Shown here one piece after another: positions 36,846 to 45,173 of a DNA stretch of 64,000 nucleotides (position 1 is its first letter; every line of letters begins with the position of its first letter). The stretch comes from Bacteroidia bacterium (GTDB lineage Bacteria; Bacteroidota; Bacteroidia; Flavobacteriales_D; JAUILH01). A model generated the notes under the pieces. The model worked only from the letters and a program-made list of their open reading frames with translations, did not search any database and was not told the origin of the DNA. Location: contig JAUILH010000003.1 of the NCBI GenBank assembly GCA_030433115.1, positions 1,746-65,745 on the forward strand, written 5' to 3'. Both the position numbers and the translations under genes were made by a program.

Positions 36846-37763
36846 ATGAAAAACTCTTTACTCTCTTTTGTACTGCTACTCTTAGGATCATTTGCTTTTG
36901 CGCAAGGACCGATTACCGAAATCTGTATGGTTACTGTTGACACTGGACATACTCACAACGTGGTTGTGTGGGAAAAAGCCAGTCAAATTAGTACAGTAGG
37001 TATAGACAGTATGCGCATTTACAGACGGACGGTTCTCGGTATGGATTCTCTGATTGCCACTGTGGATTATGACTCGTTAAGCGAATACCACGATCACAAC
37101 GTTAACGTAAACTTAAAAGGGTATATGTATCGAATTGAAGGTATAGATAATCTGGGAGTTGTTGGCAACAAATCTGCACCGCACAGAACTATTCACTTTG
37201 CAGTTATCGACAATGGATCAGGTAATTTACACTTGGAATGGTCGCCTTACATTGGTCACACGGTCAACTCATACGAATGCTGGCGAGACTCTCTGGGCTC
37301 CACTCAGTATCAAAGTGTCAATACCACGTCAACAGCCAATGATACCACCTGGTGGGATAACAATACGCCTATGAGTTGGGCAAATCTCTGGTACAAAGTA
37401 GACGTTCCCGGATTCGTGAGTTGTGAATCCACAAGAGCCAATCACAACACCACCAGATCTAATAAAACTCAACCCATCTCGGGAACTCCGGTAGATGTTG
37501 AAGAGAACTCCCTACAAGAATTGCATGTATATCCAAATCCAAGTAATGATAAGTTCTATTATCAGTTTTCATCTCTTACCTGGGAACCAATAACAATTAG
37601 TGTGATGGACTTGTCTGGAAAACAAGTTTTAGAAACCAAATACATCAAGGTATCCGGACAATACAGAAATGAAATTGACTTGAGCAATATGCCTTCCGGG
37701 ATGTACTTTCTGAGAATCAGTAATTCAAGCAAAACTCTAAACAAAAAACTCTTGCTTAAATAG
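36846..37763 (+). CDS. T9SS type A cargo: minimal member (signal peptide + shared FN3-like module + CTD)
   Basis: EICMVTVD...VVWEK...HRTIH...CESTRANHNTTRSNKTQP; CTD VYPNP...MPSGMYFLRI...KKLLL. Confidence 0.88.
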   Translation: MKNSLLSFVLLLLGSFAFAQGPITEICMVTVDTGHTHNVVVWEKASQISTVGIDSMRIYRRTVLGMDSLIATVDYDSLSEYHDHNVNVNLKGYMYRIEGIDNLGVVGNKSAPHRTIHFAVIDNGSGNLHLEWSPYIGHTVNSYECWRDSLGSTQYQSVNTTSTANDTTWWDNNTPMSWANLWYKVDVPGFVSCESTRANHNTTRSNKTQPISGTPVDVEENSLQELHVYPNPSNDKFYYQFSSLTWEPITISVMDLSGKQVLETKYIKVSGQYRNEIDLSNMPSGMYFLRISNSSKTLNKKLLLK

Positions 37764-37813
37764 GGTTTGTAGGTTGACTTGCAATTGCTTAACTTGCGGC
37801 TTTTATTGAAGCC

Positions 37814-40800
37814 ATGGAATCACTTTCAAAACTCTTGTTAGCACTGCTAAGCTTTGCTCTAATTTCTCACAACTCTACAGCTCAAAACCTAAATTGGGCA
37901 GGCTCTGTAGGTCAGGTTGCCCAAGATAGTGCTACAGCGGTTGCACACACCTCAAATGGTGGTTTTGTAATCGTTGGTAGGGGCACACAGGACGATTTCG
38001 GTCCGGATTATGATCCCTTCGGAGGAAGCGGTGCTTATGGTGGTCCTCAATACGACTGGCACTTCATTGCTAAATATGACAACCAGGGTCAATTGCAGAA
38101 TATCAAGATTCCTGACTATGGATTTGGTGCATTTCAGAATAATAACGGTGGTAATAATGCATTAAGCAGTACTCAAGATGAGTTCACAGATGTTGCAGTA
38201 GATGGCAGTGGGAATATATACGTAACCGGAACTTTTAATCAGGACCTTGAATTTGATGTGGCAAATGGTCCTGCATCTCCTCATGAATTATATCCTGTAA
38301 ACTATAATGGAGATTTACTCGTTCTGAAACTGGATCCGGCACTCAATCCTACATTTTCTTTTAATGCAGGAGCAGATGCCAAATGTGTGGGTCATGCCAT
38401 TGATGCAAATCTGGCTGGTGATTTCTTTGTTGGAGGACAATACTCTAACAATACAAGCCAATTTGATCTCGATAAGTTTACGGCTGGAAATCAAACTCCC
38501 ACCAATAATTCGGGATTTATGGAGGGGGCTTTCCTGGCTGCCTACGATAACACCAATAACCTCACATGGTCTATTGGTTTTGGTGGAAGCCACATGGATG
38601 ATGCCATTTATGATGTAGCCACAGATAACCTTGGAAATGTCATTTGTGTTGGTCAATTGACTACAGCCAATTCTGATTTTAATCCACTTGGTTCCGCTGT
38701 TACATTAAGTCCTGTGGGCTCACAAGACCTATTCATTGCGAGTTATAACTCAGTTGGGCAACTGAATTGGGTGAAGCTGCTGGGTGATAGTGGTTCTGAT
38801 GCGGCCTACTCTGTCACTATAGACGACAATAATAACTGCTACGTAAGTGGTGAGTTCTCAGGAACATTTAGTTTTGATGGTACTCCGGTTAACGCCATAG
38901 GACAGGATGGTTTTCTTGCGAAATATTCGGGTACCGGAAACCTTGTCTGGCTCAAAACGATTTCCGGGGCTGCCAGTGAACGACTGTTAAGTGTGGATGA
39001 AAATAATGGTCAGCTCATCTGCTCAGGAGACTTCACCTCTGATCTCATTGATGATTTGGGCACCTTCAATTCTACTGGTGGAACAGACGGTTATCTGGCT
39101 CAAATTGATACGGCAGGTAATCTAATTAGCTCAAAACACGCCTCTGCAGCAGGCAATAATTCTGTTGTAGGATCGGTATTTACGGGCACCAATGATATTA
39201 TTTCTATTGGTAGTTTGGATCAGGTTAGCTCAGTCACCCTAGACCAATCACAGCCAGGAAACGCACTGTCGCCTGCTCACAGTAATTTAGAATGGTATTT
39301 TGCCAATTTCTGTACAACACCAGAAGTAAACTTGTCCTCGCTACCAGCCTTATGCGAGGGAGATGCCCCAATGACTTTAGATGGCAACGGATCTCCTTCA
39401 GGAGGCAGTTATTCAGGAATCGGCATCATCAATGGTGCATTCTATCCCTTACTTGTAGGAGCTGGAAGTTACGATATGGTATACGAATACCAATATGGCG
39501 CTTGTGTTAATTCAGACACACAAACTATTGTAGTTAACCCTAACCCAATTGTACAACTCGCTGGCATCAGCGATTTTTGCGAAAACGACAATTCTCATGC
39601 TCTTGTTGAAGGCATCCCTGTTGGAGGAAGTTACTCGGGAACAGGTGTTAATTCTGGTAATTTCGACCCGCAACAAGCAGGAAGTGGCATACACACCATA
39701 AACTACACATACACTGATGCCAATGGCTGCACTGATGACGCCTCTCAACCTGTTCTCGTAAATGACGCTCCAGACATTAACGTGTCAACAACTGATGCTG
39801 ATTGCGCCAATCCAAACGGGACTGCAAGTGCCTCAGCCAGTGGTGGCGCACTGCCTTATCTGTATTACTGGAGTACAGGAAATTTTGGGCAAAATATTAG
39901 TGGACTTAGCGGAGGATTCTATCAAATCACTGTTACCGATGGCAATGGATGCAGCAACTTTGAAGTAGCCAACGTATCCGATATTAATGGACCACAAATA
40001 ACGATCAACAGTGTAACAGATGTTACTTGTTTTGGAGATGAAGACGGTGCTATTGACGTTGCCGTATCCGGAGGAACCGGAAACCTTCATTTGAGCTGGA
40101 GCAATGGAGATACTACTGCACTCATTACCGATTTAGCCGCAGGGCCTTATGACCTTTTGGTAGAAGATGATGCAGGTTGTAGCGCGACCATCAGTGTCCT
40201 CGTGAATTCACCGGACGACATCACCATCACACCGAATATTGTGAACGCAGGTTGTGGACAACAAGACGGATCAATTAGTATTGTTGCCGCTGGCGGAAAT
40301 AATACCTTCACCTATGATTGGCCTGCCTCAGGAAATACAACTGACACCGAGTCTTCAATAGGGCTGGGTGTTTACACCGTAATTGTGAGTGATGGAAACA
40401 GCTGTTCTAATTCCTTTGACATTGCCCTCAACGAAACTGGCGGTCCTATCATCTCCATTGACAACATCACAAATACACCATGTGGATCGATTACAGGAGC
40501 GGTAGATATCACGCCATCGGGAGCGGGACCATTTACCTTCAATTGGCAAGACAATAACTCAAGCACTGTGTCCCTGGCAGAAGATTTAACAGGAGTGGCT
40601 TCAGGTAACTACGTAATTACAGTGACTGATACAAATAACTGTAGTTCAACAGAGCCAGTCGTTGTTGGAGTCAGCTTTCAGGATAATATTGAACTTTGTT
40701 TGATCACTGTGGACACAACAAGTGGGAAAAACTTGTTAGTATGGGAAAAGCCTACTACATCTTCAATCGATTTCTTTAATATTTATAGAGAAGGCTCAAT

Positions 40801-41506
40801 GAGTGGCGTTTACGATCTGGTTGATACCGTACACTATAATTCCTTGAGTCAGTACACAGATTTAAGCGCAGATCCATTGGTGAGAAGCTGGCGGTATAAA
40901 ATTAGTGCCGTTGACCAATGCGGTAACGAAAGTGTTTTAAGTACTTTTCACAAAACCATTCACCTAACCAGTAATTATGGCATCAACAACGATATCAATC
41001 TCAACTGGGACGATTACCTTGGCTTTCCATATAGCACTTATTATATTTGGAGATGGTCAGATGTAGATGGCTGGAATCAGTTGGGATCTGTACCAAGCAA
41101 CCTCAACTCGTACACAGATGTGAACCCACCCTTTTCTGCCATGTCAATCAACTACATGATTGAAGCAGTTCCCGATCAACCTTGCGTATCTACCAGGGCC
41201 AATCACAACACAACACGTTCTAACAGAACCCAACCAGTGGCAGGACCTGGTGCCAATTCAATCCATCCATACAATCAATTGAATGTCTCAATTTATCCAA
41301 ATCCGGCCACCAATGGTTTCTTCATTGATAGTTTTGAAAACAGCATTTTGCAATTCAAACTCTACACTCAGGATGGAAAAATTGTGCAGTCTGGTAAAAC
41401 TTCAGGAAAAGCATTTATTCCAACCAGTTCTTTGGCAAAGGGCATGTATTCTTTGTCAATTTCAAACGATCAACACCAAACACACCAAAAAATAATCATA
41501 CAATAA
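37814..41506 (+). CDS. T9SS type A cargo: SBBP-like propeller + SprB-like repeats + shared FN3-like module
   Basis: Propeller repeats (DVAVDGSGNIYVTGTF, FLAKY...W); SprB-like GGALPY.Y.W...GL.GG.Y...VTD.NGC; CVSTRANHNTTRSNRTQP; IYPNP CTD. Confidence 0.9.
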   Translation: MESLSKLLLALLSFALISHNSTAQNLNWAGSVGQVAQDSATAVAHTSNGGFVIVGRGTQDDFGPDYDPFGGSGAYGGPQYDWHFIAKYDNQGQLQNIKIPDYGFGAFQNNNGGNNALSSTQDEFTDVAVDGSGNIYVTGTFNQDLEFDVANGPASPHELYPVNYNGDLLVLKLDPALNPTFSFNAGADAKCVGHAIDANLAGDFFVGGQYSNNTSQFDLDKFTAGNQTPTNNSGFMEGAFLAAYDNTNNLTWSIGFGGSHMDDAIYDVATDNLGNVICVGQLTTANSDFNPLGSAVTLSPVGSQDLFIASYNSVGQLNWVKLLGDSGSDAAYSVTIDDNNNCYVSGEFSGTFSFDGTPVNAIGQDGFLAKYSGTGNLVWLKTISGAASERLLSVDENNGQLICSGDFTSDLIDDLGTFNSTGGTDGYLAQIDTAGNLISSKHASAAGNNSVVGSVFTGTNDIISIGSLDQVSSVTLDQSQPGNALSPAHSNLEWYFANFCTTPEVNLSSLPALCEGDAPMTLDGNGSPSGGSYSGIGIINGAFYPLLVGAGSYDMVYEYQYGACVNSDTQTIVVNPNPIVQLAGISDFCENDNSHALVEGIPVGGSYSGTGVNSGNFDPQQAGSGIHTINYTYTDANGCTDDASQPVLVNDAPDINVSTTDADCANPNGTASASASGGALPYLYYWSTGNFGQNISGLSGGFYQITVTDGNGCSNFEVANVSDINGPQITINSVTDVTCFGDEDGAIDVAVSGGTGNLHLSWSNGDTTALITDLAAGPYDLLVEDDAGCSATISVLVNSPDDITITPNIVNAGCGQQDGSISIVAAGGNNTFTYDWPASGNTTDTESSIGLGVYTVIVSDGNSCSNSFDIALNETGGPIISIDNITNTPCGSITGAVDITPSGAGPFTFNWQDNNSSTVSLAEDLTGVASGNYVITVTDTNNCSSTEPVVVGVSFQDNIELCLITVDTTSGKNLLVWEKPTTSSIDFFNIYREGSMSGVYDLVDTVHYNSLSQYTDLSADPLVRSWRYKISAVDQCGNESVLSTFHKTIHLTSNYGINNDINLNWDDYLGFPYSTYYIWRWSDVDGWNQLGSVPSNLNSYTDVNPPFSAMSINYMIEAVPDQPCVSTRANHNTTRSNRTQPVAGPGANSIHPYNQLNVSIYPNPATNGFFIDSFENSILQFKLYTQDGKIVQSGKTSGKAFIPTSSLAKGMYSLSISNDQHQTHQKIIIQ

Positions 41507-41510
41507 AGCC

Positions 41511-44500
41511 ATGAAAAAATTTGTATTACTCGGACTTCTATGTGCCACAGGGGCTTATTCAAACGCACAAAATCTAAATTGGGCGTTCAACGTAGGTGGA
41601 ACAACCTTCGACTCCGTCAATGTAGTTAAGGAGCACAACGGACACCTGTTTTGTGCAGGTAGTTATTCTGGTAATAGTAATAACGTAGAATTTGATCCTA
41701 TTGGACCAGGACAAGGTGCTTTTAACAATACCACCAGTGGGTTTTTAACGAACTATAATCCCAATGGAACATTAAACTGGGTATTGCCCGTTTATTCTCC
41801 AAATGGAAGCGAATCTAGTGACATTGTTGTTGAGAACGGGACTGTTTTGTACGCCGGAACATTCAACGGAGGCAACATTGGTCTGGATTATCTTGGAGGG
41901 AGTGGATTTCACTCAGTAAACCCAATAGAAAATGGTTTTGTTGGACAGTTTGACGAGAATACGGGCAGTGTTATTTGGTCAACGGCTATAGGCGTCACAG
42001 GAGGCGCCAGCGCCAACGGTGTATCGTATGACCAAAATGGAGATGTATTTGTCGGCGGATATTGTGGAGATCAGGGGCAAGGTATAGATATGGATGCTGT
42101 AGCAACCGGATCTCAATTTCCTACAGGTTTGATCGGTCCTTTCTCTATCCAAGGATACGTAGCAAAATATGACGTGGGAACCGGAGCAGGTGAATTCCAA
42201 TGGGGAATCGCGCTTGGTGGAGATGGATCAGAAGTAATTGATGTGGTTGCTGATGGCGCTGGTGATGTTTACGTGCTTGGGAAAGCCAGTCCGACTAACA
42301 GCGGGAATATTGACCCAGCTGGATTTGGTTTTAATGTTGGAGGTTCAGGGAATGAAAACATGTTTCTGGCCAAATACAATGGCGGATCTGGTACCATGAT
42401 CTGGGGAACAGAATTGGGAGGTACAAGTGATGAGTTTGGTGTGGCAATTGGACTCTACGGACCCTTCGTATACATAGTAGGAACGACTAATTCAACGTCA
42501 TGGAATGCAAATCCATTAGGTACGGCAATTAATGTGTCAAGCAATGGTGGTGTAGATGGCTTCTTTGCAAGTTATTCAGGCTCAACAGGAGATGGTACTT
42601 ATGCAAGAACTTTTGGAGGCACAGGAGATGATGTAATTCATGGCGCAAGCAACGACGATAGTAAGTTGGCCATTACAGGATCTTTCGACGGCACCATAGA
42701 CTTGGATCCTGCTTCAAGTAGTCCTGTCTTTAACTCAAATGGAGGAACCGATTGTTTCGTTGGTCAATACGAATTAACCAGTGGAAATTATACCAATGGA
42801 TTTACCATTGGAGGAACAGCCAATGAATTTGGAACAGGTGCCCACCATAGCAACTCTGATAATGTGTTCGTGGTAGGAACTTCTCACGGTACAATAGATA
42901 TTGATGGCGATGGTAATGATGAAGTTCAAACGAATGGCATAGCTGATGTTTTCATTAGTTCATTCTGCATTGCTCCTGCTGTTACTCATCCAGCTCCTTC
43001 CGCACTTTGTGAGGGCGATCAGGCAATTACCCTTTCAGGTGGATCACCATCAGGCGGAAACTACTCAGGAATTGGAGTTATCGGCGGGAATTTTTATCCC
43101 TTGTTAACCGGTCCGGGAAGCTACAACCTCAACTATGAATACACCGCTCCCAATGGATGTACAGTGAACGTGCCATTCAACATGGTGGTAAATCCTGAAC
43201 CTTCCATTGTATTTGGAAATTTGGATGTGGCATGTATCAATGAGGATCCCATTCAATTAAATCAAGCATTACCAACTGGCGGAAATTATACGGGACAAGG
43301 TATCACCAATGGTGTACTCGATCCAGTAGACGCAGGAATTGGTTTACATCTGGTGACTTATAGCTACACCGATGGAAATGGCTGTGCTGCGGAAGCTTAT
43401 CAAACTCAGGAGGTTGCTGAAATTCCAAGTATCACCGTGTCAACTACAGATTCGGATTGTGGACAGGATAATGGACAGGCCATTGCTTCAAGCACAGGAG
43501 GTGAAGCGCCATACAATTATTATTGGAGCTCTGGTGCAAATGCCTCAGTGGCAGACAATCTTGCCGGCGGACTATACGTGATCAATGTGACTGATGGTAA
43601 CAACTGTTCAAATTTTGAAGTAGTAACCATTTCAGACTTAAATGGACCAAGTATCGCTGTTGACAACATTACAGACGTAACTTGTTATGGCGATGATAAT
43701 GGAGACATCAGCACAACCATTTCTGGAGGAAGCGGGAACTTGTCTATTCTATGGAGCAATGGTGAAACTACAGACGATATCACTCAACTAAGTGCAGGAA
43801 ACTATGAAATTTCGGTAACTGACACAGCCGGATGTGAAGCAACTATGAGCATCACAGTAGATCAACCACAACCATTAAGCATTGATACCACTATCACCTT
43901 GGCAAATTGTGCTACAAACGACGGCAGCATCACAGTAACCGGTCAGGGTGGAAATGGCTCGTATAGTTACGAATGGTTAACTACAGGCAGCAGTGGTCCA
44001 ACCGATTCTAACCTTGCTGTTGGTCTTTACGAATTGGAGTTAACAGACGGACAAGGCTGTGTGGATACTTTCTACCTTACTATGAACGAAAGTGGAGGTC
44101 CGGTCATTACAATAGATCAAATTGATCCGGCAAGTTGTGGCAATCTGGACGGAAACATTCTAACCAGCATTACCGGAAACGGCACCATAGGCTACACCTG
44201 GTTAGATGAATCTGGAAGCACGGTGGGTACTTTAGAAGATTTGAATGGTGTGGATGTCGGGGAATACACAATCATTGCCACTGATCAGGCTGGATGTTCA
44301 TCTTCCAGTTTTGCAGAAGTAATGCCGTTTCTTCCGGAAAATGTTGAAATCTGCTTAGTAACTGTGGATACATTAACTGGCACAAACCTGGTAGTTTGGG
44401 AAAAGCCTGTAAGCACCGGCATAGATCATTTCAGAATCTATAAAGAAGGGTCCGTAAGCGGATTGTATGAATTAATTGATACCATTCACTACAATTCATT

Positions 44501-45173
44501 GAGCCAGTATACTGATCCTGTTTCAAATCCTCAGATCAGAAGTTGGAGATACAAAATTGCTGCTGTGGATGCTTGTGGGAATGAAGGCGACATCAGCCCA
44601 AGACATAAAACCATTCACCTAACAAGTTCATATGGCATCAGCAACGAAATTAACCTAAGCTGGGATCATTATCAGGGATTCTTGTACAGTACTTACAATG
44701 TGTGGAGATGGAGCGACATAGATGGGTGGCAACAATTGACCTCAATTCCAGGCAACTTGAGCAGCTACTCTGATTTAAATCCACCGGTTGGTGCTTCAGC
44801 CATTCGATACATGGTGGAAGCCACACCAAACGTGCCCTGTGTCTCAACAAGAGCCAATCACAATACAACCAGATCTAACAGAACGCAACCTATCGCCGGA
44901 CCTTCAGGTAACCCTGATGGTATAGCAGAAGGTGTTTTGAGATTTAGAGCCTACCCTAACCCAACTTCAGACTACATGAAGTTGGAGTTTAGCGAATCAT
45001 TGAGCGGCACCTTAGTGCTCCTAGATTTAACCGGTAAAACGCTAGAAATCATACCAATCAATTCGGCCCAATCGGCTGAAATCAACTTACAGGGGTACGC
45101 CTCCGGAATCTACCAGTTGGTATTGAGATCAGGAGAAAGAGTTCACACACTAAAGGTACATAAGACGAACTAA
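41511..45173 (+). CDS. T9SS type A cargo, paralogue of the preceding gene
   Basis: Same architecture (AQNLNWA start, propeller, SprB-like stalk, EICLVTVD module, CVSTRANHNTTRSNRTQP, AYPNP CTD). Confidence 0.9.
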   Translation: MKKFVLLGLLCATGAYSNAQNLNWAFNVGGTTFDSVNVVKEHNGHLFCAGSYSGNSNNVEFDPIGPGQGAFNNTTSGFLTNYNPNGTLNWVLPVYSPNGSESSDIVVENGTVLYAGTFNGGNIGLDYLGGSGFHSVNPIENGFVGQFDENTGSVIWSTAIGVTGGASANGVSYDQNGDVFVGGYCGDQGQGIDMDAVATGSQFPTGLIGPFSIQGYVAKYDVGTGAGEFQWGIALGGDGSEVIDVVADGAGDVYVLGKASPTNSGNIDPAGFGFNVGGSGNENMFLAKYNGGSGTMIWGTELGGTSDEFGVAIGLYGPFVYIVGTTNSTSWNANPLGTAINVSSNGGVDGFFASYSGSTGDGTYARTFGGTGDDVIHGASNDDSKLAITGSFDGTIDLDPASSSPVFNSNGGTDCFVGQYELTSGNYTNGFTIGGTANEFGTGAHHSNSDNVFVVGTSHGTIDIDGDGNDEVQTNGIADVFISSFCIAPAVTHPAPSALCEGDQAITLSGGSPSGGNYSGIGVIGGNFYPLLTGPGSYNLNYEYTAPNGCTVNVPFNMVVNPEPSIVFGNLDVACINEDPIQLNQALPTGGNYTGQGITNGVLDPVDAGIGLHLVTYSYTDGNGCAAEAYQTQEVAEIPSITVSTTDSDCGQDNGQAIASSTGGEAPYNYYWSSGANASVADNLAGGLYVINVTDGNNCSNFEVVTISDLNGPSIAVDNITDVTCYGDDNGDISTTISGGSGNLSILWSNGETTDDITQLSAGNYEISVTDTAGCEATMSITVDQPQPLSIDTTITLANCATNDGSITVTGQGGNGSYSYEWLTTGSSGPTDSNLAVGLYELELTDGQGCVDTFYLTMNESGGPVITIDQIDPASCGNLDGNILTSITGNGTIGYTWLDESGSTVGTLEDLNGVDVGEYTIIATDQAGCSSSSFAEVMPFLPENVEICLVTVDTLTGTNLVVWEKPVSTGIDHFRIYKEGSVSGLYELIDTIHYNSLSQYTDPVSNPQIRSWRYKIAAVDACGNEGDISPRHKTIHLTSSYGISNEINLSWDHYQGFLYSTYNVWRWSDIDGWQQLTSIPGNLSSYSDLNPPVGASAIRYMVEATPNVPCVSTRANHNTTRSNRTQPIAGPSGNPDGIAEGVLRFRAYPNPTSDYMKLEFSESLSGTLVLLDLTGKTLEIIPINSAQSAEINLQGYASGIYQLVLRSGERVHTLKVHKTN

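Follow-up and report, generated by a model that had tools for sequence, protein, structure and literature searches.

The 64,000-nucleotide window analyzed here, from contig JAUILH010000003.1 of the Bacteroidia bacterium assembly GCA_030433115.1, contains three tandem genes for type IX secretion system (T9SS) cargo proteins, and each product carries a short, strongly conserved peptide, called the tag in what follows, ahead of its C-terminal sorting domain (CTD). We found that the spelling of the tag is uniform within a genome and different between genomes, with genome G503 as the exception, and that the tag closes a homologous module of about 185 residues composed of two fibronectin type III (FN3)-like domains. 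On balance, these sequence comparisons lead us to favor the reading that the peptide is a docking tag, which would be read by one shared, lineage-specific partner on every module-bearing protein of a cell.

In a six-frame translation of the source assembly (G000; 264 contigs, 4.38 Mb, 40% G+C, 93.7% complete), RANHNTTRSN occurs eight times, each copy lying 94–99 residues ahead of a stop codon. Three copies belong to the window, where all three open reading frames (ORFs) show the consensus C-x-STRANHNTTRSN(K/R)TQP and where a degenerate DNA pattern for NHNTTRSN gave 3 matches, compared with 0 in 100 shuffles. An earlier note on this DNA had described the three peptides, and they read exactly as described, including the identity of 15 of the 16 residues despite the divergence of the 305-aa protein, which shares 35–39% identity with the C-terminal ~290 aa of both large proteins, and including the codons said to differ (Ser tcc/tct/tca, second Arg aga/cgt/aga, Thr acc/aca). 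Since 9 of the 10 motif codons vary synonymously among the eight copies, the tag is conserved at the protein level, as the note had argued. Its assignment of the three proteins to T9SS cargo also holds: all end in type A CTDs that exceed the cut-offs of both Por_Secre_tail (PF18962, 40.2–59.3 bits, cut-off 27) and TIGR04183 (34.8–53.8 bits, cut-off 23). Four further N[ST][ST]RSN matches in G000 are located in short ORFs of 17–96 aa and are taken to be spurious. All eight tag copies close the same module, which starts with an invariant Cys, C[LMVA][IV]xV[DN] (E-I-C-L-V-T-V-D), and ends with C-x-S-[ST]-RANHNTTRSN-[KR]. The (N/D)(H/Y)N(S/T)(S/T)RSN peptides that the note mentioned from elsewhere do occur in many other proteins, but always at the end of this one homologous module and not, as was supposed, on unrelated scaffolds.

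The spellings observed in a first set of genomes (G000, G401–G403, G405, G410 and G411) and in a second set of more distant genomes (G424 onward) are compiled in Table 1. To relate them to the history of the modules, the tag columns were removed and a maximum-likelihood tree was built from 46 modules, in which the genomes interleave. A clade of small, ~310-aa proteins (support 98/83) comprises members from G000, G401, G402, G403 (two copies), G405, G411 and G418, and every copy in it spells its tag like the large paralogues of its own genome, which themselves sit in other clades. Mapping the tag class on this tree takes 14 changes, compared with a minimum of 4. Approximately unbiased (AU) tests, made on groups that were named by genome but tested after the tree had been seen, and on genomes that are related and thus not independent samples, rejected a single-genome clade for G405 (8 copies, p 8.9e-6), G403 (3 copies, p 2.1e-5) and G411 (7 copies, p 5.5e-54). 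Quick trees of the second set (54 rows) and of all 95 rows gave the same interleaving; rows dropped from the trees were G519:C203:10607-11152, which has an in-frame TAG codon, and several G487 copies with X from undetermined bases.

Table 1. Tag spellings by genome, with the number of module copies showing each. Square brackets enclose alternative residues.
Genome	Spelling	Copies
G000, G401, G402 (one genus)	RANHNTTRSN	8, 5 and 2
G403	ANNHNTSRSN	3/3
G405	GDFNSSRSN	8/8
G410	ED[YF]NSSRSN	6 of 9 module copies found
G411	A[VI]NHNTTRSN	7/8
G424	K[TKS]YN[SA]SKSNTA	13/13
G438	K[NS][FY]NSSKSNTSS	6/6
G512	K[DN]YNSSKSNT[ST]	16/16
G487	..[YF]NSSRSN	9/9
G519	SENHNSSRSN	4/5
G586	VNYNSSKSNTGN	2/2

The uniformity is confined to the tag. 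When the alignment columns of 87 sequences from 16 genomes were ranked by within- minus between-genome identity, the nine top-ranked columns all fell at 168–180. Identity within and between genomes was 0.95 and 0.27 at column 173 (H/Y/F), 0.96 and 0.47 at column 175 (S/T), 0.99 and 0.55 at column 176 (S/T), and 1.00 and 0.46 at column 177 (R/K), which corresponds to differences of 0.44–0.68 at these four columns. Control two-state columns outside the tag gave −0.03 to 0.14 (R/K at 34 and 70, S/T at 10 and 12, N/D at 61, F/Y at 30 and 55), and in the first set no column of the domain core, the linker or the CTD had a difference above 0.35. At equal identity of the module body (0.3–0.4), tag identity was 0.88 within genomes versus 0.44 between them. 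The closest body relative of 35 of 85 sequences is found in another genome (0.56 identity versus 0.42 to own paralogues), and the tags of these 35 are nevertheless nearer to those of their own genome (0.85 versus 0.60). Three other causes of uniformity were considered and rejected. Recent gene conversion is contradicted by the third codon positions inside the tag, whose identity within genomes is 0.29–0.56 in most cases (0.73 in G403 and G512), and by the use of both Ser codon families; lineage-specific expansion is contradicted by the trees and AU tests, and compositional bias by the control columns.

For concerted evolution of this kind at the protein level, a common trans-acting constraint would be needed; it could come from a receptor or an enzyme, from a glycan of the surface, or from the tags themselves. 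Because the constraint hits all copies in a cell, concerns these few residues only and comes without intramolecular compensation, it points to a shared trans-acting reader. The earlier suggestion that the peptide is a recognition element for a shared partner, and marks a sub-system of secreted proteins, thereby gains strong new support, at the level of sequence, from a genome-specific concerted evolution that is restricted to the motif.

The structural context of the tag was studied in an AlphaFold2 (AF2) model of the 305-aa protein, built from a 54-sequence alignment (pLDDT 89.6, pTM 0.84), which comprises a signal helix and three beta-sandwiches. In this model, a strand at 182–194 ends at Cys193 and is followed by the turn ESTRA and a strand at 199–205, NHNTTRS, so that the tag is the F-G turn plus the predicted last beta-strand of the second FN3-like domain, rather than the polar, non-core and possibly exposed loop that had been expected. 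The last strand of domain 1 (H-R-T-I-H) continues straight into the first strand of domain 2, and a low-confidence linker (211–220) separates the tag from the CTD. A Foldseek search of the PDB returned 299 matches at E ≤ 0.001, with FN3 arrays at the top (gp130, contactins, fibronectin; prob 1.0, E 7e-8), which places the module among FN3 beta-sandwiches at the level of fold; global TM-scores were low (0.21–0.31) because the domain arrangement differs from that of the matched arrays. No sequence relative was found among solved structures (best E 0.39). An intein-like reading, based on the Cys at the module start and HN|T at its end, was rejected: the fold is FN3-like, His173 is present in just 77 of 120 modules, and no Hint family was found in Pfam.

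To delimit the family, a profile of the eight G000 modules was searched against a sequence library, in which 15142 representatives matched at E ≤ 1e-3, with 2685 of them reaching E ≤ 1e-30. Long tandem FN3 arrays rank first by summed score; they match weakly per domain and have neither the Cys nor the tag. True family members are single hits above 200 bits over the whole profile with the tag present. Among 136 modules, the most conserved 10-column window of the 185 profile columns is 170–179 (3.38 bits versus a mean of 2.31). Column 166 is C in 134/134, column 169 T in 106/131, column 170 K or R in 121/127 and column 171 A in 97/122; column 172 is N in 67, D in 24 and T in 13 of 120, and column 173 H in 77, V in 13 and Y in 11 of 120. 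They are followed by N at 174 (116/120), S/T at 175 (113/120) and 176 (119/120), R at 177 (111/118), and S and N at 178 and 179 (118/118 each). Conservation thus extends over T169, K/R170, A171, N174, S/T175, S/T176, R177, S178 and N179 and is not limited to the SRSN of an ordinary strand end, an outcome that would have spoken against the earlier note.

One alternative to a docking tag is a purely structural one, in which no other part of the fold would be as constrained as the turn and last strand, kept in place by a disulfide staple and an Asx-turn and salt-bridged to the N-terminal strand, while the spellings would arise from lineage-specific amino-acid or mutational bias at sites that tolerate two or three residues. 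That the tag is a strand in a confident AF2 model agrees with this view, as does the N-terminal strand EICLVTVD, which is the second most conserved window (3.06 bits). Cys4 and Cys166 occur together in 133 of the 136 modules (neither in 2, one in 1) and D9 with R177 in 106. Cys4 at the start of the module is probably disulfide-bonded to Cys166, which closely precedes the tag. Exactly three Cys are present in 106 of the 136 modules. The position of the third varies: in 99 modules it is column 77, in the F-G loop of domain 1, and in 29 it is column 119, in domain 2 strand C; since these two positions are mutually exclusive and the other two Cys universal, one Cys is probably unpaired. Moreover, very distant members keep just the ordinary ..S.SN strand end of the tag, and all changes between genomes are conservative (N/D, H/Y/F, S/T, R/K). 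Structural constraint therefore explains the conservation, but it does not explain the uniformity within genomes: the control columns of the same chemistry show none of it, no body or CTD column co-varies with the tag, which argues against intramolecular compensation, and the genome-specific positions (173, 175, 176 and 177) lie on both faces of the strand. We therefore regard the purely structural explanation as unlikely.

A second alternative is that the tag is a modification site, [DN]-[HYF]-N-[ST]-[ST] being an N-x-S/T sequon that a lineage-specific enzyme, for example an N-glycosyltransferase (NGT), would modify. The specificity of such an enzyme would drive concerted changes, and an enzyme is one kind of shared trans partner that would fit the concerted evolution; the near-invariance of N174 and of S/T176 is in line with this idea, and position 172, at −2 of the sequon, is D, as in the bacterial sequon D/E-x-N-x-S/T, in 24 modules and N in 67 of the 120, N being the residue in G000. 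However, STT3 (PF02516) had no match in G000 and none over the cut-off in G403, G405, G410, G411 and G418, a result in which the control genomes with hits were archaea only, so that sensitivity to bacterial PglB is not thereby established; GT41 (PF13844) had no match in G000 at its 93.7% completeness. In addition, the Asn lies in a predicted beta-strand rather than in a loop, and some members do without it (YGSTRSN in P0083 and P0085). N-glycosylation of the PglB or NGT type, to which the two N-x-T triplets listed in the earlier note could point, is accordingly regarded as no more than an improbable alternative, and modification of the tag in general likewise appears improbable.

Tags that are uniform across the paralogues of a cell would also be needed if they paired with one another or had a glycan ligand in common. 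In the first case, the strand would be an exposed edge strand that pairs with the same strand of other module proteins in a common surface array; in the second, the tag, with its aromatic and Asn/Asp/Arg residues, would act like a lectin on the lineage-specific lipopolysaccharide or polysaccharide of its own cell near the membrane anchor. In FN3-like sandwiches the last strand usually lies at the edge of a sheet, and the model predicts that the tag is such a last strand; a mixture of aromatic, Asn/Asp, Ser/Thr and Arg/Lys residues is typical of sugar-binding sites. The bare stalk protein, i.e. the 305-aa protein, is conserved across families and could be a base or cap subunit, and the two tag classes of G503 follow gene clades, as two assembly groups would. 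Against this, a self-pairing motif would be hard to change in concert, and the tag is not membrane-proximal in those proteins where PKD domains intervene. Even jointly, self-recognition and glycan anchoring seem rather unlikely to us.

PKD domains also bear on the relation of the tag to secretion itself. Por_Secre_tail scored over its cut-off in 30 of 32 family representatives (one of the others has a partial hit, one none), and the tag is found ~100 residues from the C-terminus in most members. This is consistent with the idea that the tag extends the T9SS signal, so that PorU, PorV, PorZ or the translocon would read it as a sub-class signal added to the CTD; concerted change could come from T9SS components, which are partners present in single copy, and the SprA translocon is encoded in G000 (SprA_N, 505 bits in a 2373-aa ORF). 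Yet in at least 9 of the 32 representatives 1–4 PKD domains part the tag from the CTD, which implies that the tag is not bound to the CTD junction and which argues against the placement near the mature C-terminus assumed previously. G000 has at least 150 Por_Secre_tail matches (150 scored among 244 candidates), of which the eight tagged proteins make up ~5%, so that at least 142 other type A cargo proteins, together with two module proteins, do without the tag. Furthermore, the CTD columns lack genome-specific uniformity. A role as a T9SS signal extension is thus highly improbable.

The two tag-less module proteins of G000, each of which has a CTD, are encoded at C1:1280-1792 (−; 1027 aa) and C87:4811-5302 (−; 674 aa) and read C-LVTRANDFNWILSN and C-NSGSTIMASSYSN at the tag position. 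Their orthologues in G411 and G402 (L052, L036) lack the tag as well, which indicates that old tag-less branches of the family exist.

The leading candidate for a partner of the putative docking tag is encoded next to the three cargo genes. A gene for a 1059-aa membrane sensor with Reg_prop/Y_Y_Y propellers and a PP2C phosphatase output starts 50 nt past the last module gene of the window. A module gene is located directly upstream of the sensor orthologue on the same strand in G000, G401, G402, G411 and G418, with gaps of 26–125 nt by ORF calls, and the same order and orientation recur in G476 and G537 and also in G493, G479, G487, G586, G512, G430 and G574; counting the window locus and L054, L058, L059, L060, L142, L144 and L145, this arrangement is found in at least 14 genomes from many families. 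What close relatives have conserved as its core is the bare stalk protein gene followed, at the distances given, by the sensor gene, and in G438 and G469 a module gene lies within ~4 kb of the sensor gene. As the product of the adjoining module gene can be either small or large, it is the module as such to which the sensor gene is linked. The relatives with a full-length sensor orthologue (E ≤ 1e-150) coincide exactly with those in which the module is present, 9 of 21. In the class sample, in which five candidates were scored per genome and related genomes are not independent, the periplasmic domain of the sensor (residues 23–745) matched at E ≤ 1e-70 in 12 of 48 module-positive versus 0 of 153 module-negative genomes.

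Direct reading by the sensor is possible in that cargo in transit and the propeller domain of the sensor are both periplasmic. In this tentative model, tagged cargo on its way through the periplasm would be bound by the propeller domain, and this binding would report the cargo load. The cell could thus gauge how far surface adhesins of this class are in flux or in backlog and tune their expression; tag and sensor would then co-evolve in each lineage. Gene order is what makes the sensor a candidate, and we put it forward only tentatively as the reader of the tag; a cargo-sensing circuit for type IX secretion, in which the co-encoded Reg_prop/Y_Y_Y/PP2C sensor binds the tag, is likewise a doubtful though attractive possibility. 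The PP2C (SpoIIE) domain itself belongs to a very large paralogous family. Among the matches listed at E ≤ 1e-30 there are 37 in G000, 23–43 in module-bearing relatives except G410 (10), and 0–6 in most module-free relatives, with 29 in G415.

Several observations weigh against a shared reader or against the sensor in this role. Next to the conservative nature of the substitutions and the qualifications attached to the AU tests, one of them is G503 (L131-L138), which has two or three tag classes, TNLN[ST]SRSN, SSIKSSKSNTSD and SSGYSSARSN, and is the sole clear exception to one spelling per genome. Some module proteins keep their CTD and still lack the tag (C1 and C87 of G000, L052 of G411). 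The sensor gene of G405 adjoins a module gene but on the opposite strand, and the sensor orthologue of G403 lies ~139 kb from the module genes. At the more permissive threshold of E ≤ 1e-50, the periplasmic domain matched in 20 of the 48 genomes with the module and in 11 of the 153 without it. Sensors with Reg_prop and Y_Y_Y domains are known as glycan sensors, not peptide sensors, and a regulator placed beside its target genes would explain the gene order without any contact between the two proteins.

With respect to its distribution, a threshold of E ≤ 1e-35 places the module in 48 of the 201 genomes sampled from the class, a tally that takes in G499, flagged as unpublished, and in 29 of 122 genera; among close relatives it was present in 9 of 21 at E ≤ 1e-20. 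The exact RANHNTTRSN, searched as a DNA pattern, was restricted to G000 among 401 genomes of the phylum, and a scan of genome contigs for NHNTTRSN gave 86 matches, of which 22 encode relatives, at 21 distinct loci. All of these are in metagenome-assembled genomes of Flavobacteriales; those with the exact peptide are few and are labelled Parvicellaceae and similar. Passengers upstream of the module vary. SprB repeats were found in 21 of the 32 representatives; the module proteins of G000 have SprB repeats, an SBBP propeller or PKD-like regions (the latter read by eye), and other family members have Kelch, RCC1, FG-GAP, MAM, GEVED or beta-helix domains. The bare stalk protein has ~30 orthologues of ~300–310 aa with 43–81% identity, among them P0163 of Parvicella tangerina.

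No Pfam or NCBIfam model matched the module in the three window proteins, in the case of Pfam even at E ≤ 10, and this includes fn3 (PF00041); the Por_Secre_tail match is the sole Pfam or NCBIfam match of the 305-aa protein. The ESM Atlas returned unnamed Bacteroidota clusters and fn3 only, and no published description of module or tag was found in the libraries and literature searched (motif strings; T9SS, FN3 and SprB terms). By its sequence, the module would therefore represent a new domain family, an unnamed two-domain stalk that deserves a Pfam or NCBIfam model.

The module resembles the FN3 domains of bacterial surface proteins in the strand order of both halves and in sequence habits (..VxW.., YxYxV.AVD..GNES..S), and generic tandem FN3 arrays match its profile weakly, just as Foldseek places its model on FN3 arrays. 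It differs from them as a fixed domain pair joined by a continuous strand (H.TIH..) that Pfam fn3 fails to recognize, in having two Cys, an invariant one as the first residue of the first strand and a second one right before the last strand, and in a last strand that is all-polar, near-invariant and genome-specific, unlike ordinary FN3 G strands. Signal peptide, passengers and a C-terminal Por_Secre_tail, in a genome with a SprA translocon, place the module proteins with T9SS type A cargo, whereas the tag lies outside the CTD, is not needed to define cargo and can be separated from the CTD by PKD domains. LPXTG with sortase and PEP-CTERM with exosortase are short sorting motifs that are each read by one dedicated partner. 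Like them, the tag is a short motif common to many otherwise unrelated secreted proteins of one cell and has lineage-specific variants, the pattern expected where many substrates face one reader; unlike them, it is a beta-strand in a folded domain upstream of a known sorting domain, while theirs lie in a cleavable C-terminal tail with a transmembrane helix.

A parallel may also exist with PorA of Porphyromonas gingivalis, a small T9SS protein with a CTD that passes a signal on to a membrane sensor in control of T9SS-related expression (PMC7712824). By analogy, the position of the gene for the bare stalk CTD protein, or of other module genes, directly upstream of a gene for a membrane sensor would recall the PorA-PorXY-SigP system. 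The lectin domain of PorA is FimH-like, and the receiver of its signal is a histidine kinase (PMC7712824); here, the small protein is a tandem FN3-like module, and the sensor combines Reg_prop/Y_Y_Y propellers with a PP2C phosphatase as output.

The features of the window are listed in Table 2. The N-termini of the three cargo proteins, MKNSLLSFVLLLLGSFAFAQ, MESLSKLLLALLSFALISHNSTAQ and MKKFVLLGLLCATGAYSNAQ, are signal-peptide-like as read from the sequence, with no predictor used. At L059 in G402, of the same genus, the small gene is directly followed by the sensor gene, so that the two large cargo genes of the window (37814-45173) are an insertion or duplication between the two in G000. The two ORFs past the sensor gene are conserved in G402 only. 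About 2 kb upstream, on the opposite strand, an ORF with a CHU_C (type B) T9SS signal domain is found, so that type A and type B cargo genes are neighbors here. No neighbor gene is common to the five other tag loci of G000, the flanks of which hold MutS, LeuRS, RecA and similar genes.

Table 2. Features of the window around the three tagged cargo genes. Coordinates refer to the 64,000-nucleotide window.
Feature	Position	Strand	Content and basis
Type B cargo ORF, 1289 aa	30728..34597	−	DUF7948, SBBP, PKD, Ig_7, CHU_C
Bare stalk protein gene, 305 aa	36846..37763	+	Signal peptide, two-domain FN3-like module, linker, type A CTD; ORF
Two-domain FN3-like module, 305-aa protein	36915..37481	+	Invariant Cys (EIC-MVTVD) to motif end; alignment
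Motif copy 1, C-E-STRANHNTTRSNKTQP	37422..37475	+	Degenerate pattern and sequence reading
Type A T9SS CTD, 305-aa protein	37527..37751	+	PF18962, residues 228-302, E 4.6e-16; TIGR04183
Cargo gene, 1230 aa	37814..41506	+	SBBP beta-propeller repeats, SprB repeats, module, CTD; ORF, Pfam, NCBIfam
Two-domain FN3-like module, 1230-aa protein	40688..41242	+	307 bits versus own family profile
Motif copy 2, C-V-STRANHNTTRSNRTQP	41183..41236	+	Degenerate pattern and sequence reading
Type A CTD, 1230-aa protein	41291..41500	+	PF18962, residues 1160-1229
Cargo gene, 1220 aa	41511..45173	+	N-terminal region, SprB repeats, module, CTD; ORF, Pfam, NCBIfam
Two-domain FN3-like module, 1220-aa protein	44343..44897	+	Alignment, family profile
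Motif copy 3, C-V-STRANHNTTRSNRTQP	44838..44891	+	Degenerate pattern and sequence reading
Type A CTD, 1220-aa protein	44952..45149	+	PF18962, residues 1148-1213
Membrane sensor gene, 1059 aa	45224..48403	+	Signal/transmembrane segment, Reg_prop propellers, Y_Y_Y, transmembrane segment, SpoIIE-type PP2C phosphatase; Pfam
ORF, 239 aa	48482..49201	−	No Pfam family
Leucine-rich-repeat protein, 889 aa	49203..51872	−

T9SS cargo is currently sorted by its C-terminal domain alone, into type A and type B. The module with its tag would define a further sub-class, recognizable by an unnamed stalk of two domains, the last of its strands behaving as an address label would. It is rare for about ten residues to evolve in concert at the protein level across ancient paralogues; this signature, here accompanied by internal controls, suggests that something in each cell reads the tag strand. 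For the T9SS field, this provides a defined peptide, a candidate reader in the adjacent sensor phosphatase, and a new domain family. If the sensor is indeed the reader, this would be the second case, after PorA-PorXY, of T9SS cargo feeding back on regulation.

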